A stretch of DNA of 64,000 nt, from IMG/VR virus record IMGVR_UViG_3300013383_000019; one strand, written 5' to 3'. Both the position numbers and the translations under genes were made by a program. The DNA comes from a virus. Lineage: Duplodnaviria > Heunggongvirae > Uroviricota > Caudoviricetes. Positions 37,001 to 61,431 of the stretch are shown here, in pieces (within the stretch, counting starts at the first letter, position 1; each line of letters opens with the position of its first letter). Under the pieces are notes generated by a model. That model had not been told where the DNA came from. It worked only from the letters and a program-made list of their open reading frames with translations, and made no database searches.

Positions 37001-37873
37001 GTGCCTTCGCCCCTTGCAGGGCGCTCCGTGTCCAGTCGTTACACCTTCCTTTTTATAAAGGCTTGGCTCGGCGTTGTCTGCGCAGAGCCATTATACCATA
37101 TCCATCGAGGTGATGCCGCTATTCCTCCCGAAACCAAGTGGTCTTTTTCCCGTCTGGCAACCTTTGAACAATGTCCTCTGGCTTATAAACTCCAGTATAT
37201 CGATCGCGTCCCCAATGAGAATAACGCCTTCGCCGAATACGGTACGCACTGTCATGAAATTCTGGAAAAATGGGCGAAGGGCGAGCTCCCCGACTTTCTT
37301 ATGGCGTCCGAGTATGAGGAAGGATATGATCAGGCGCTTCAGCACTCCTTCCCCCCGTTCCCCAAAGGCATGCCGCAGAAATATTACGACGCTGGCCTTG
37401 AATATTTCGAGACTTTCTCCGGCTTCGGTGATCAATATGATATTCTGGCCGCTGAAGAGCGGTTCGAAATTGAAATCGGCGGTTATCCTTTCGTTGGAAT
37501 CGCCGACTTGGTGCTCAAAAATCGCGAAACCGGCGAAATTGAGGTCATCGATCATAAATCCAAGTCCATGAGCTCCATGAAAAAGGAACTGGATACTTAT
37601 CGCAAGCAGCTCTATGTTTACGCCGCGTTTGTCAAGCAGAAATTCGGCGTTTTCCCCGCCCGGCTGCGCTTCAACATGTTCCGGGATGGCACCTTCATTG
37701 ATGAACCGTTCGACGCGGCCGCATATAACGCCGCCATGGCCTGGGTCGTCGATACGATCGAGAAAATTCTCTTTGAGTTTGATTGGAGGCCGCATAAAGA
37801 TAAGTATTTCTGCCGGTGGATCTGCGGCGTGCTGAATTCCTGCCCCCTCTGCGAGGAGATATTGGAGAGATGA
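37001..37873 (+). CDS. PD-(D/E)xK exonuclease of the Cas4/RecB family with a C-terminal Cys cluster.
   Basis: N-terminal ..SFSRLATFEQCPLAYKLQYI..; C-terminal CRWICGVLNSCPLC (four Cys); track coordinates used. Confidence 0.6.
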   Translation: MPSPLAGRSVSSRYTFLFIKAWLGVVCAEPLYHIHRGDAAIPPETKWSFSRLATFEQCPLAYKLQYIDRVPNENNAFAEYGTHCHEILEKWAKGELPDFLMASEYEEGYDQALQHSFPPFPKGMPQKYYDAGLEYFETFSGFGDQYDILAAEERFEIEIGGYPFVGIADLVLKNRETGEIEVIDHKSKSMSSMKKELDTYRKQLYVYAAFVKQKFGVFPARLRFNMFRDGTFIDEPFDAAAYNAAMAWVVDTIEKILFEFDWRPHKDKYFCRWICGVLNSCPLCEEILER

Positions 37874-38730
37874 TGATCGATCAGAGAAAAATCGACGCGG
37901 CGCTCCTGAAGCTGCGTACCTTCGAGCCCGAAGAGGGGTACTATGTCGCCTTCTCCGGCGGCAAAGATTCTCAATGCGTTTATCATCTGTGCGAAATGGC
38001 CGGCGTTAAATTTGATGCGCATTATCGCGTCACAAGCGTGGACCCGCCTGAACTGGTTCGTTTCATTCGGGATCATTATCCTGACGTAGCGCGGGAAATC
38101 CCGTATAACGCGGCCGGAAACCCGATCACCATGTGGAATTTGATTCCCGCCGTTGGCAAGCCGCCGTCCCGGAGCGCGCGGTATTGCTGTGCCGATCTGA
38201 AAGAGTCCGGCGGGTAGGGGCGTGTTACAATAACGGGCGTCCGCTGGGCGGAAAGCCCTCGCCGCGCCGCCATGCACGGCTCTGTGGAAATCCTCCAGCA
38301 GCCCGCAAGGGCGAAACGGATTGCGTTAACGCGCGGCATCGATTTCCATGAAGGCTCGAAGGGCGGTATCATCCTGAACGATGATAACGATTCGTCCCGC
38401 CGTATGGTGGAAGTTTGTTATCGTACCATGAAAACGCTCGTCAACCCCATCATCGATTGGTCGACAGAGGAAGTCTGGTCTTTCCTGAACGATGTGGTTC
38501 AGGTTCCGCATTGCCGTCTGTATGATGAAGGCTATGGCCGGCTCGGCTGTATCGGTTGCCCGATGGGCTCCGTAAAAAATCGCCAGCGCGATTTTGAACG
38601 ATATCCGAAATATGAAGAAGCGTATCTTCGCGCGTTCGACCGGATGTTGAAAGCGCGGGACGAACGTGGTTTGCCGAACGATCTGTGGTCTTCGCCTGAA
38701 GAGGTAATGGCCTGGTATTTATCTGTGTAA
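37870..38730 (+). CDS. PAPS-reductase-like (PP-loop ATPase, CysH/DndC superfamily) protein with one in-frame TAG at 38215-38217.
   Basis: N-terminal part YYVAFSGGKDS (PP-loop); the part after the TAG, GRVTITGVRWAESPRR, matches the CysH ITGxRxxES motif in the same frame. Track ORFs 37816..38217 and 38272..38730 are in frame and are separated only by the TAG. Confidence 0.6.
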
Positions 38731-38735
38731 TTTCC

Positions 38736-38765
38736 TTGCGCGATTCGCGCGCAATTCCTTTTGCG
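38736..38765 (+). terminator. Rho-independent terminator.
   Basis: Palindrome ttgcgcg-att-cgcgcaa followed by ttcctttt. Confidence 0.55.
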
Positions 38766-39070
38766 TTATGCGCCGGAGAAGTAACACGGCGCGTCATCAC
38801 TGGCGGTTGTTACTTCATCCCAGTGTTGACAATGACAATAACGTTGTTGTTATTGCCCTCAACATGGATGGTCACAGCGGTGTCCTGTGGTTTAGCCAAC
38901 TCGAACGCAGCTGCAATCAGCTGAAGCACAATCAGAATAATGTTCTAAATTGTTACTATCTTCTCCATTTGAAGCTGTGGCCTCCTTCCCTTCAACGTAT
39001 CGTGCGAAATGGGTTCCCTCGCCTCTGGCCGCATAACGCAATTATACATCAATCAAGAAAGGAATACATC

Positions 39071-40381
39071 ATGTCTTTCACTCTTGAATCTCAGCTTCAC
39101 GAAATCAGGCCTTGCTTCGATGCGATTCAAACCGCGCGAGGCAAGGCGAAAGAGCCGGAAATTCTGGCCTGCGCCCAGAGTCCTGCGGCGTTTTCCGCCC
39201 TGAAGCTTCTGCTCGATCCTATGGTCGTCTTTCATGTTCAGCGCAGGTCGCTTGAGAAAAATTTGAATATCACGCTGGCTTCATATTGGGATGATCTTTT
39301 TACCATGTGCGAATATTTGTCCGGCCTGCGCGCCGCAGATATGCAAGTTCTCGCCAAGCTGCAATATACGCTCTCCAATATAGCCGACCCGGCCTTGCGC
39401 GAGTTCCTTGTTCGATTCCTCTGTAAAGATATTCCGCTCGGTATTTCCGCCAAGACGGTCAACAGGGTTCTTGGCCGCACGGTTATTCCCGTGTATGAAT
39501 GCATGCTGGCCGAGAAATATTTCGAGCATCCCGAAGCGGTTGAAGGCAAACGTTTCGCGCTTACCGAAAAGCTGGACGGCGTTCGCTGTCAGTGCGTGGC
39601 CGAGAAGGGCAAGTCGCCCCGTTTCTATACCCGGCAGGGTCAGCCCATCGAAGGGCTTGTCGAGTTGGAAGATGATATTCTCACGCTTACCGATAGCGGC
39701 GCGCTTGGCTTTGTGCTTGACGGCGAGCTGCTCATCGCGGACAGGGAGAATATTCCCAGCAAAGAGCAGTATAAGCGCACCGTGCAGGTCGTCCGCCGGG
39801 ATGGCGAGAAGCGCGGCGTCGTCTTCAACGCTTTCGATATCGTCGATTACAGCGTCTTTCTCAACCATGACTGCACCACGCCGTATTACCTTCGCCGGCA
39901 GGAGTTGGAAGCGATCGTCCATGATGTCGAGCATATCAAGGTCGTTCCCGTCCTCTATGTCGGCGGCGATGCGAATGAAATCCTTCGCCATCTTGAAATT
40001 CAGCGCGGCCTCAATCATGAAGGCGTGATGATCAACCTGCTCGACGCGCCCTATGAGTTCAAGCGCACCCGGAATCTGCTTAAGGTTAAAGCCATGCAGG
40101 ATTGTGATCTTGCAATCACCGGTGTTGAAGAAGGCGGCGGCCGCTTCAAGGGCACGCTCGGCGCATTGGTGGTGGATTTTAAGGGCAATCCCGTCCGTGT
40201 CGGCTCCGGCATGACGGATTCTTTCCGCCGCGAGGTCTGGGCGAATCCGTCCCAATTTATCGGTCGGGTCGCTACGGTGCAGTATTTTGAGGTCACGCAG
40301 GATAAATCGGGCGTCGAGTCGCTCCGTTTCCCGGTTTTCAAAGATCTGCGTGAGCCCGGCAAAGAAGTCAGCTATTATTGA
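39071..40381 (+). CDS. ATP-dependent DNA ligase.
   Basis: Motif I KxDG (LTEKLDGVRCQ); adenylation and OB domain organisation; about 436 aa. Confidence 0.7.
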   Translation: MSFTLESQLHEIRPCFDAIQTARGKAKEPEILACAQSPAAFSALKLLLDPMVVFHVQRRSLEKNLNITLASYWDDLFTMCEYLSGLRAADMQVLAKLQYTLSNIADPALREFLVRFLCKDIPLGISAKTVNRVLGRTVIPVYECMLAEKYFEHPEAVEGKRFALTEKLDGVRCQCVAEKGKSPRFYTRQGQPIEGLVELEDDILTLTDSGALGFVLDGELLIADRENIPSKEQYKRTVQVVRRDGEKRGVVFNAFDIVDYSVFLNHDCTTPYYLRRQELEAIVHDVEHIKVVPVLYVGGDANEILRHLEIQRGLNHEGVMINLLDAPYEFKRTRNLLKVKAMQDCDLAITGVEEGGGRFKGTLGALVVDFKGNPVRVGSGMTDSFRREVWANPSQFIGRVATVQYFEVTQDKSGVESLRFPVFKDLREPGKEVSYY

Positions 40382-40396
40382 CAGGAGGAAATTGAT

Positions 40397-60844: not shown

Positions 60845-60877
60845 CCCACCCCATCATTGCGGTCTGCCGTTTACAAA

Positions 60878-60915
60878 CAAAAATGGACATGCCCAGTAGA
60901 AGGCCGTCCATTTTG
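60878..60915. terminator. Bidirectional rho-independent terminator.
   Basis: Stem aaaatggac / gtccatttt with T-runs on both strands. Confidence 0.55.
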
Positions 60916-60926
60916 AAGCGAGGTCG

Positions 60927-61139
60927 CTCACCGGTGATCATCAAAATTCACACCGGTTTGCCGCCCGATACTCTTCTAGGTTCCCGCTGGGAGTTCTTTG
61001 CTGCGGGGTACCGTAACGTGGAGCCCGTTCTCAGGGTTCTCAAGAACCGTATGGCTTCCCTTACCACGGTTTTTGAGCTTGCGCCACTGCTACTTTTCGA
61101 GTATCGAGATAACCTCTTTGCTACCTAACGGCTTATGCA
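60927..61139 (-). CDS. hicA: Second HicA-family toxin paralog with two in-frame TAG codons (codons 17 and 55).
   Basis: MHKPLGSKEVISILEK*QWRKLKNRGKGSHTVLENPENGLHVTVPRSKELPAGT*KSIGRQTGVNFDDHR; GSH, TVP and GT-[TAG] align with the HicA consensus. Confidence 0.55.
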
Positions 61140-61266
61140 TTGAAGCCACCTCCTGTGGCTATTATACACAAACACGCGGCAGACTGCAATGTTTTCTTTT
61201 GTGAACGGGGAGATGGAGCGGTACAGCAATATTAAGGGGCGATCGCGTTAACCCCGCCGGTTTCTA

Positions 61267-61431
61267 TTACCGGCAATGCTGCTCCCAAGTACAAATAGTG
61301 TACTTAGGCTCAGGTTTGTTTTTCCTGGCCTTTTCGAGTTGCCCCGTCAGCCAGGTTTTCATCTATGAGATCACCTTTTTGACGACGTACTCAAGAAACA
61401 GTTCGATCATAACGTCACAAACATGTTCCAT
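61267..61431 (-). CDS. Small protein upstream of hicA-2, MEHVCDVMIELFLEYVVKKVIS*MKTWLTGQLEKARKNKPEPKYTICTWEQHCR. It is either read through at the TAG or is two coupled mini-ORFs joined TAG-ATG.
   Basis: RBS aaaggag; the TAG is immediately followed by ATG. Confidence 0.3.

Follow-up and report, generated by a model that had tools for sequence, protein, structure and literature searches.

A predicted leucine-type amber suppressor tRNA and sparse in-frame TAG codons in a phage of a clade that apparently reads TAG as leucine

TAG recoding, filed as genetic code 15, was reportedly described by Ivanova in 2014. In gut phages it has been treated as code 15 (Peters et al., PMC9523058), and among phages whose code differs from that of their host only TAG-to-Gln and TGA-to-Trp changes have been seen (Borges et al., bioRxiv 10.1101/2021.08.26.457843). 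This restriction to Gln and Trp has so far been explained by the glutaminyl- and tryptophanyl-tRNA synthetases (GlnRS and TrpRS) being easily hijacked. Codes that read UAG as Leu are listed as NCBI tables 16 and 22 and are known from chytrid and green-algal mitochondria (PMC6131824, PMC6551751) and from phyllopharyngean ciliates (PMC11687900); in the literature searched, TAG or UAG read as Leu was found in organelle, ciliate and engineered-suppressor cases only, and in no bacterial virus or bacterium. Here we analyse a 64,000-nucleotide stretch (the window) of the IMG/VR virus record IMGVR_UViG_3300013383_000019 (Caudoviricetes), in which TAG lies in frame within a set of mostly small genes, together with a tRNA gene with a CUA anticodon on contigs that overlap the window. 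Positions refer to the window unless a contig, given an L number, is named. Stop codon recoding by a phage suppressor tRNA is known; a Leu-inserting amber variant in a phage clade would be new.

The window holds 24 in-frame TAG codons across 14 genes: two HicA toxins, six small membrane proteins, two further small open reading frames (ORFs), and four accessory enzymes or regulators, namely a PAPS reductase, a RemA-like protein, a RuvC-like resolvase, and a glutaredoxin/NrdH-like protein. An earlier inspection of the letters alone (the sequence-only reading) had named TAG sites in the HicA genes, in six membrane ORFs and in the four accessory genes, and all of these genes do carry TAG in frame. 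We consider it likely that a phage-encoded amber suppressor of the tRNA-Leu type inserts leucine at these codons and that the 14 genes depend on read-through, with TAG possibly acting as a gate.

ARAGORN predicted no tRNA within the 64-kb window. On four contigs that overlap its left end (L011-L014, with L012 at 100% identity over 13,918 bp), it predicted an array of six tRNA genes 3.6-4.8 kb beyond window position 1, in the order Ser(GCT), Met, Gly(TCC), Thr(TGT), Ala(TGC), and lastly a 77-nt tRNA with the anticodon CTA, the kind of tRNA that the sequence-only reading had proposed to look for; its presence speaks for the suppression proposed there. This tRNA-CUA lies at L012 18597-18673, 4.7 kb from window position 1, and is identical in all four contigs. 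It scored 39.9 bits (E = 1e-6) against the Rfam tRNA model, whose gathering score is 29; a run at the gathering threshold had missed it and the tRNA-Ser through its speed filters, and a run with an E-value cut-off recovered both.

The tRNA-CUA has G1-C72, G2-U71, discriminator A73, A15:U48, and normal G18G19 and T-loop elements. Its D arm consists of a 3-bp stem and an 11-nt loop carrying A14, A15, and G18G19 (UGGUG-CAAUUGGCAGA-CAC), and its variable region of 5 nt ends in U48. Bacterial tRNA-Leu has the same D-arm layout and A73, and leucyl-tRNA synthetase (LeuRS) ignores the anticodon. BLAST of the tRNA-CUA against GenBank phages and E. coli genomes returned nothing useful; a D-arm pattern scan of IMG/VR was informative. 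The exact 18-nt D-arm sequence occurs at nine IMG/VR loci, all nine being tRNA-Leu genes (with CAA, TAA, or TAG anticodons), and seven of the nine are only 75-79 nt long. Over its whole length the tRNA-CUA is 60-69% identical to tRNA-Leu genes, while other isotypes, among them Gln, Lys, Trp, and Glu, reach 43-55% (phage tRNA-Gln genes, 45-49%). To judge from its sequence, the candidate suppressor is built on a tRNA-Leu scaffold.

Two other identities were rejected on tRNA structure. A pyrrolysine tRNA (tRNA-Pyl) has a short D loop without G18G19, a 3-nt variable loop, and a 6-bp anticodon stem; here G18G19 is canonical, TTCGAA is present, and the variable region is 5 nt. The "Pyl" label given by ARAGORN is its name for any CUA anticodon, and no pyl genes (pylSBCD) were found among the Pfam annotations obtained, a scope outside which ∼35 kb of the genome lies. 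A tRNA-Gln identity is contradicted by G1-C72 and A73 in place of the U1-A72 and G73 of bacterial tRNA-Gln. Short phage tRNA-Leu genes with CAA, TAA, or TAG anticodons, 75-79 nt long with a 4-6-nt variable region and a typical tRNA-Leu D arm, seem to be common in IMG/VR phages (L025 1873-1951, L026 1168-1243, L027 7979-8055, L028 2448-2523, L029 199-275, L030 1833-1907, and L031 772-848).

More distant relatives of the phage carry the same anticodon on a classical tRNA-Leu body. Among relatives with a 60-67% identical primase-helicase, found by scanning the GTDB species representatives, six loci have a tRNA-CUA of 85-86 nt, located downstream of the primase-helicase gene by a few kb and, in L040, immediately behind DnaE. 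These tRNAs have the canonical class II tRNA-Leu shape with a long arm, and their anticodon loop, CUCUAAA, is the tRNA-Leu(CAA) loop with A35 changed to U. The helicase, DnaE, and other long genes of these relatives contain 1-5 in-frame TAGs each.

We tallied the residues that stand opposite TAG in the long same-strand ORFs of diverged loci, at 54 independent sites with at least three aligned homologues each. The majority partner was Leu at 39 of the 54 sites and Gln at two. The partner codons (n = 335) included CTG 98, CTC 50, CTT 48, TTG 21, CTA 10, and TTA 4 times, and only 13% lie one base from TAG. The same procedure applied to TAA gave no sites, and applied to TGA it gave only off-frame artefacts, 78% of them single-base neighbours (CGA, TCA, GGA, TGG, and TGC). 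The sequence-only reading had found no in-frame TAA or TGA in the affected genes, which agrees with this homology-based control but is partly circular for ORFs that are themselves delimited by TAA or TGA; no Pfam match in the window required read-through of either codon. A first, all-against-all TAG tally yielded Q, Y, K, and W side by side and was discarded, since non-coding frames of near-identical contigs, together with antisense ORFs, dominated it; the codon-level control was added in the restricted tally.

Seven more IMG/VR contigs carry the same Leu-type tRNA-CUA beside TAG-rich long ORFs. The loci noted with such a tRNA are L030 3201-3287, L049, L050, and L051-L055, on contigs of 31-116 kb; of the seven loci checked, L050 excepted, six hold long ORFs with several in-frame TAGs. 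These comparisons suggest that the clade reads TAG as Leu, the window phage apparently being a member with sparing TAG use. Recoding of TAG to Leu may be fairly widespread, having been annotated as code 15 or missed.

Within the window, the summed log-odds over the seven sites with homologue columns (HicA, RuvC, and PAPS) place Leu first and Gln 9 bits lower. At the RuvC TAG the column of 93 homologues holds L 70, M 8, I 7, F 6, V 1, and Q 1. At a site common to both HicA paralogs, where TAG follows Gly-Thr and the family has GTL, Leu is present in 33 of 45 homologues and Gln in one. One small membrane ORF (42511-42756) has Leu where its paralog (42127-42384) has TAG.

Of the two HicA toxin paralogs, HicA1 (59213..59428, minus strand) starts with TTG and has TAG at 59315-59317, 59261-59263 (the GTL site), and 59219-59221; HicA2 (60928..61140, minus strand) has TAG at 61090-61092 and 60976-60978 (again the GTL site). 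The TAGs that the sequence-only reading had placed here are real, although its HicA2 positions were one base off and it missed the third TAG of HicA1. With TAG translated as X, the Pfam HicA match runs across it at residues 7-64 and 9-63, and a solved HicA structure (a PDB homologue) aligns without gaps through TAG. Each gene has a -10 box close to consensus and a strong Shine-Dalgarno sequence: HicA1 has its own TATAAT promoter and HicA2 its own extended -10 element, TGTGTATAAT. Five ORFs that flank the HicA genes (58884-59156 and 61550-62679; among ten ORFs tested) gave no Pfam match to HicB. The HicA domains themselves are confirmed, and the adjacent HicB of a HicAB module was not found among those ORFs.

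Among the accessory genes, the PAPS-reductase-family gene (37870..38730, plus strand, 286 aa) has TAG at 38215-38217 (residue 116), the RemA-like gene (49488..49865, plus strand, 125 aa) at 49587-49589 (residue 34), and the RuvC-like resolvase gene (53319..53828, plus strand, 169 aa) at 53493-53495 (residue 59). The Pfam match spans TAG in all three (PAPS_reduct, residues 25-231; RemA-like, 6-78; RuvC, 14-158), and a solved RemA structure aligns gap-free through TAG, with Ile opposite. In the glutaredoxin/NrdH-like gene upstream of NrdD (53883..54095, plus strand, 70 aa; TAG 53949-53951) the match is weak (Glrx-like, E = 9e-4, under the curated cut-off). The earlier statement that the family resemblance continues past TAG is thereby borne out by Pfam or PDB for PAPS, RemA, RuvC, and both HicA proteins, and weakly so for the NrdH-like protein. 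Homology was used here instead of a coding-score test on 40 codons each side of every stop, in which TAG was not separable from TAA or TGA owing to same-frame neighbours and shadow frames.

The TAG codons are also retained in relatives. In RemA, RuvC, and both membrane cassettes at 42.1-42.8 kb, TAG is kept at 73-89% DNA identity. The RemA TAG is present in L015, L021, and L022 (∼76-81% DNA identity) while flanking residues change, and the RuvC TAG is present in L021 and L024. RemA codon differences comprise 34 synonymous versus 9 nonsynonymous changes. In favour of read-through, the seven database homologues of the RemA-like protein all cover only the part beyond TAG, and four of them begin directly after it. 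For RuvC, we counted 20-22 synonymous versus 11-12 nonsynonymous changes on the N-terminal side of TAG and 39-46 versus 18-24 on the C-terminal side, and 22 of 25 polymorphisms downstream of TAG in L003 and L004 fall at third codon positions. As far as such codon counts can tell, RemA and RuvC are under purifying selection on both sides of TAG. Independent assemblies of different samples (4-8 of them) agree on the TAGs of RemA, RuvC, both HicA genes, the NrdH-like gene, and two small ORFs, indicating that these TAGs are not the sequencing errors that the sequence-only reading had listed as a possible refutation.

TAG still ends four early genes, with stops at 8267, 10941, 11180, and 14753, as had been noted before. 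The first gene (8123..8269, plus strand) has TAG 8267-8269 in a coupling junction of the form GAGGAGG-N2-TAG-NN-ATG. Two consecutive genes (10749-10943 and 10946-11182, plus strand) each end in ...KNAKAEG followed by TAG and then the cgATG of the next gene. In the fourth (14429..14755, plus strand; TAG 14753-14755) read-through would add 12 codons without coding signal. Three of the four stops sit in GGAGG-N3-TAG-NN-ATG coupling junctions (window 8240-8275, 10915-10950, and 11155-11190), and the read-through of all four has a negative coding score, which together indicate that TAG is a genuine stop there. The ...KNAKAEG junctions look like duplicated translational-coupling cassettes. The earlier proposal of conditional suppression is upheld to the extent that TAG is both stop and sense in one genome; the timing that it implied would follow from this coexistence only.

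The placement of TAG is far from chance. Counter-oriented genes, which run against the direction of transcription around them (n = 13; 1,140 codons), hold 20 of the 24 TAGs and co-oriented genes (n = 85; 16,961 codons) hold four; Fisher p for this bias is 7e-21 when codons are counted and 2e-8 when genes are. Expressed per gene, 10 of 13 counter-oriented genes bear TAG (the two HicA toxins, the six small membrane proteins, and the two small ORFs) versus 4 of 85 co-oriented genes. The 28 genes of at least 200 codons (10,733 codons) contain a single TAG, in the PAPS reductase; the other 23 are in genes of less than 200 codons. The TAG share of Leu positions is 17% for the counter-oriented set versus 3-6% in long ORFs of the heavily recoded relatives. 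On the plus strand the TAG trinucleotide is ∼2.2 times rarer than its complement CTA (199 versus 435, all frames, whole window), an asymmetry between strands that goes in parallel with the orientation bias seen for genes with TAG.

A simple gene caller ended 55 genes at TGA, 35 at TAA, and 4 at TAG. Re-prediction with TAG as sense, which the sequence-only reading had proposed as a check, gave Pfam matches that span TAG and left coding density almost unchanged (83.2% with the standard code versus 83.5%, a gain of ∼0.3 points with a crude gene caller); the 5-10% gain usually taken as a sign of recoding is not seen. The recoding is so sparse that density-based detection and standard screens would miss this genome.

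The six small membrane-protein ORFs carry two or three TAGs each, as claimed for them before, and have no Pfam or PHROG family match. Three counter-oriented ORFs lie at the left end on the plus strand: 580..849 (89 codons; TAG 589 and 790), 995..1240 (81 codons; TAG 1001, 1127, and 1208), and 1412..1558 (48 codons; TAG 1415 and 1424). With one ORF in the flank they share a TAG at codon 2-5, reading MKK-TAG-N, MK-TAG-N, M-TAG-YL-TAG-N, and, in the flank, MKT-TAG-R. The fourth (19611..19892, minus strand, 93 codons, counter-oriented) has TAG at 19839-19841 and 19716-19718. The last two are paralogs on the minus strand: 42127..42384 (TAG 42286-42288 and 42208-42210, both kept in L015, L018, and L020) and 42511..42756 (TAG 42658-42660 and 42523-42525, kept in L018 and L020). 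These cassettes have promoter-like sites and a terminator-like hairpin downstream of them, the paralogs have TAG positions in common, and both TAGs of each are retained in relatives at 84-89% identity while the cassettes evolve fast (12 synonymous versus 11 nonsynonymous changes). A nearby ORF on the plus strand (42993-43472) with a TAG/CAG difference was rejected as a gene: it shows 5 synonymous versus 62 nonsynonymous changes and is antisense to a real PG_binding/PASTA gene (42861-43766).

The two further small ORFs are on the minus strand. One lies upstream of HicA2 (61267..61431, 54 codons; TAG 61363-61365), has no family match, and is of weak coding status; the other (63176..63358, 60 codons; TAG 63218-63220) is of uncertain coding status. 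Just beyond the window, TAG-containing ORFs are found at L009 12738-13052 (minus) and 13976-14377 (minus) and at L012 15288-16034 (plus), 17209-17463 (minus), and 19059-19220 (minus). In one flank protein, which adjoins a SpoIID gene, a phrog_4105 match runs across TAG; another gains an N-terminal hydrophobic segment only upon TAG read-through. Small membrane ORFs also adjoin the tRNA array in the flank.

We propose the following mechanism. The host LeuRS would charge the 77-nt tRNA-CUA with leucine, as is expected of an enzyme that ignores the anticodon. Ribosomes would then place Leu at in-frame TAG codons, with release factor 1 as the competitor, and read-through would yield the full-length products of the 14 genes. 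TAG may in this way form a translational gate, by which toxic or membrane-active products would appear only once the phage tRNA has become abundant; the gated genes would be independently transcribed and counter-oriented, while TAG still ends the four early genes. That toxic products would be gated in this manner is a plausible idea. We lean, by a modest degree, towards a wider picture in which a rumen or gut phage clade associated with Clostridia has a TAG = Leu code and in which, in this sparsely recoded member, a tRNA-Leu(CUA) without a variable arm is the key to orphan HicA toxins and membrane proteins.

Several observations weigh against Leu insertion and gating. The tRNA-CUA has two non-canonical pairs, C13-A22 and C31-C39, and lacks the long class II variable arm typical of bacterial tRNA-Leu. 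Its anticodon loop, UUCUAAU, resembles that of tRNA-Gln in its U32/U38 pattern. The closest orthologues are polar at two sites: the PAPS site is CAG (Gln) in L018-L020 (∼86% DNA identity) and GTT (Val) in L015 (∼73%), and the NrdH-like site is GAA (Glu) in L021 and L022, with TAG also in L024. Because several other sites fall in polar columns that vary, the Leu log-odds add up to only ∼0 over the sites of the window itself. Read-through of the four early genes that stop at TAG would add 12-145 codons. Relaxed constraint, or import from relatives with heavy recoding, could account for the enrichment of TAG in small accessory genes in place of selected gating. The host assignment is by binning only, and the sequence viewed is the genome minus ∼35 kb.

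We give less than even odds, though not small ones, to the view that Leu read-through is real and that TAG placement has no regulatory purpose, being the outcome of drift in weakly selected accessory or "moron" genes or of imported cassettes. A build-up of in-frame stops after acquisition of a suppressor has been proposed (Borges et al., bioRxiv 10.1101/2021.08.26.457843), and in the relatives TAG takes up 3-6% of Leu positions across genes of all kinds; the fast evolution of the membrane cassettes and the location of several TAG sites at variable surface positions fit the same view. Drift alone does not readily explain why the TAG share of Leu in the counter-oriented genes exceeds that of the heavily recoded relatives, why TAG at codon 2-5 recurs in the three left-end membrane ORFs and one flank ORF, or why the same conserved Leu is TAG in both HicA paralogs. 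The RemA and RuvC TAGs are, moreover, fixed across the clade while flanking codons change.

That the tRNA-CUA reads TAG as Gln, as under code 15 in crAss-like, Lak, Garnet, and Topaz phages, appears very improbable to us. The published phage TAG cases are all TAG-to-Gln, the PAPS TAG is CAG in the closest relatives, and the anticodon loop has the U32/U38 pattern mentioned above. The body of the tRNA is nevertheless Leu-like, with its D arm matched only in tRNA-Leu genes and with G1-C72 and A73, and the conserved hydrophobic columns in the window (RuvC and HicA) hold a single Q each. The clade tally likewise favours Leu as the majority partner at 39 of 54 sites versus 2 for Gln, and the PAPS case amounts to one transition (CAG to TAG) at a variable surface site, which is Val in L015. 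Neither a predominance of Gln opposite TAG nor a tRNA-Gln-like body, the marks of code 15, was found; only the PAPS site is Gln in near relatives.

We find it hardly credible that the genes are split, with translation stopping at TAG and restarting just downstream to give two polypeptides that may assemble. Start codons do occur 0-3 codons past TAG, GTG directly after it in RemA and ATG three codons after it in RuvC, and gene callers annotate the downstream parts as separate genes. These restarts lack a preceding Shine-Dalgarno sequence, however (AAAGAATAGGTG and CGCGAATAGAAG), and most other TAG sites, such as the GTL site of HicA, the membrane ORFs, and PAPS, have no start codon nearby. A TAG at codon 2-5 leaves nothing to split, and splitting would leave the phage tRNA-CUA and the Leu equivalence in relatives unexplained.

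Lastly, we give practically no credence to the view that the interrupted genes are pseudogenes or untranslated relics beside an unrelated or non-functional tRNA-CUA: many are small accessory ORFs without a family match and TAG does end four other genes, but the interruptions are TAG only, with no frameshifts, TAA, or TGA, are conserved across lineages at 11-27% DNA divergence (in RemA, RuvC, and the membrane cassettes, where relatives keep TAG and do not have the intact versions that the sequence-only reading had listed under possible refutations), share positions between paralogs, lie between stretches with more synonymous than nonsynonymous changes in RemA and RuvC, and have counterparts at Leu columns of helicase and DnaE in clade relatives.

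The window, with a G+C content of 52% and genes chiefly on the plus strand, covers about half of the phage genome, which is ∼118 kb long. Exact-protein look-ups found its proteins on many metagenome contigs of 110-123 kb; L012 (ena:ERZ808259 NODE_28, 118,556 bp) matches window 1-13918 and L009 matches window 52722-64000, both at 100% identity, and the genome outside the window was viewed to ∼10 kb on either side. Megablast of 18.7 kb against GenBank phages gave no match, and tblastn of the primase-helicase against the same set gave identities of at most 33%, with no annotated close relative there. The relatives from the scan of GTDB species representatives are on contigs binned with Clostridia metagenome-assembled genomes from goat, sheep, rabbit, and rumen samples.

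Replication genes in the window encode an AEP primase, the primase-helicase, SSB, DnaE with an intein, and a DNA ligase; those of nucleotide metabolism encode ThyX, dUTPase, NrdD, and SHMT; and PhoH, ClpP, PARP/Macro, Bro-N/ANT antirepressor, and AbiEii genes are also present. DnaE with its intein is 1638 aa long (window 43438-48354; intein PF14890 in the gene calls of L003 and L004), and an intein-less DnaE of 1058 aa is found in the near-identical contigs L001/L002 (1087-4263) and in the relative L015 (14672-17848). The intein is a presence/absence polymorphism inside one phage population. The accessory content is unusual for a single phage, comprising Macro and WGR/PARP, AAA_21 and an AbiEii nucleotidyltransferase, and two Bro-N/ANT antirepressors (coordinates listed jointly for the accessory set: window 40397-42051; 23517-26925; 17768-18526 and 20890-22035; 28192-29088; L009 10699-12306). 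One tyrosine recombinase and, shortly past the window end, one serine recombinase suggest a temperate lifestyle.

If true, a Leu amber code in phages widens the set of natural genetic codes and points to a simpler route to recoding, since LeuRS ignores the anticodon and one anticodon mutation suffices. Pipelines that translate TAG as Gln would then mistranslate these genomes. The placement of TAG in orphan toxins and membrane proteins makes a testable case of a tRNA as a translational switch, and a short-arm tRNA-Leu(CUA) could interest suppressor-tRNA engineers.

Compared with known systems, this phage is closest to the code 15 phages (crAss-like, Lak, Garnet, and Topaz), with which it shares its own tRNA-CUA, in-frame TAG in intact genes, TAG-free genes, and presumably a standard-code host; in those phages, too, recoding has been proposed to gate lysis or other lytic functions. 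It differs in that TAG would be read as Leu and not Gln, is very sparse, remains a genuine stop for four genes, and gathers in counter-oriented genes for toxins and membrane proteins instead of structural genes. In E. coli supP (leuX), a tRNA-Leu(CAA) has been mutated to CUA; as LeuRS does not read the anticodon, this tRNA brings Leu to UAG. The tRNAs of the relatives, with their CUCUAAA loop, are its exact natural analogue, although supP is a host gene mutated in the laboratory and the tRNA here is a conserved phage gene, which in the window phage has lost the long variable arm. The UAG-to-Leu codes of organelles and ciliates make the same reassignment, but genome-wide and in organelles or eukaryotic nuclei. 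Pyrrolysine decoding is similar in combining a CUA tRNA with context-dependent sense UAG in a standard-code background, whereas TAG here stands at Leu columns. An engineered "leak dampener" feed-forward loop is amber-gated by a suppressor tRNA, and its description mentions a leucine suppressor tRNA (PMC7969014). In such synthetic gating an in-frame TAG silences a gene until the suppressor is supplied, and the same logic is proposed here for what would be its natural counterpart.

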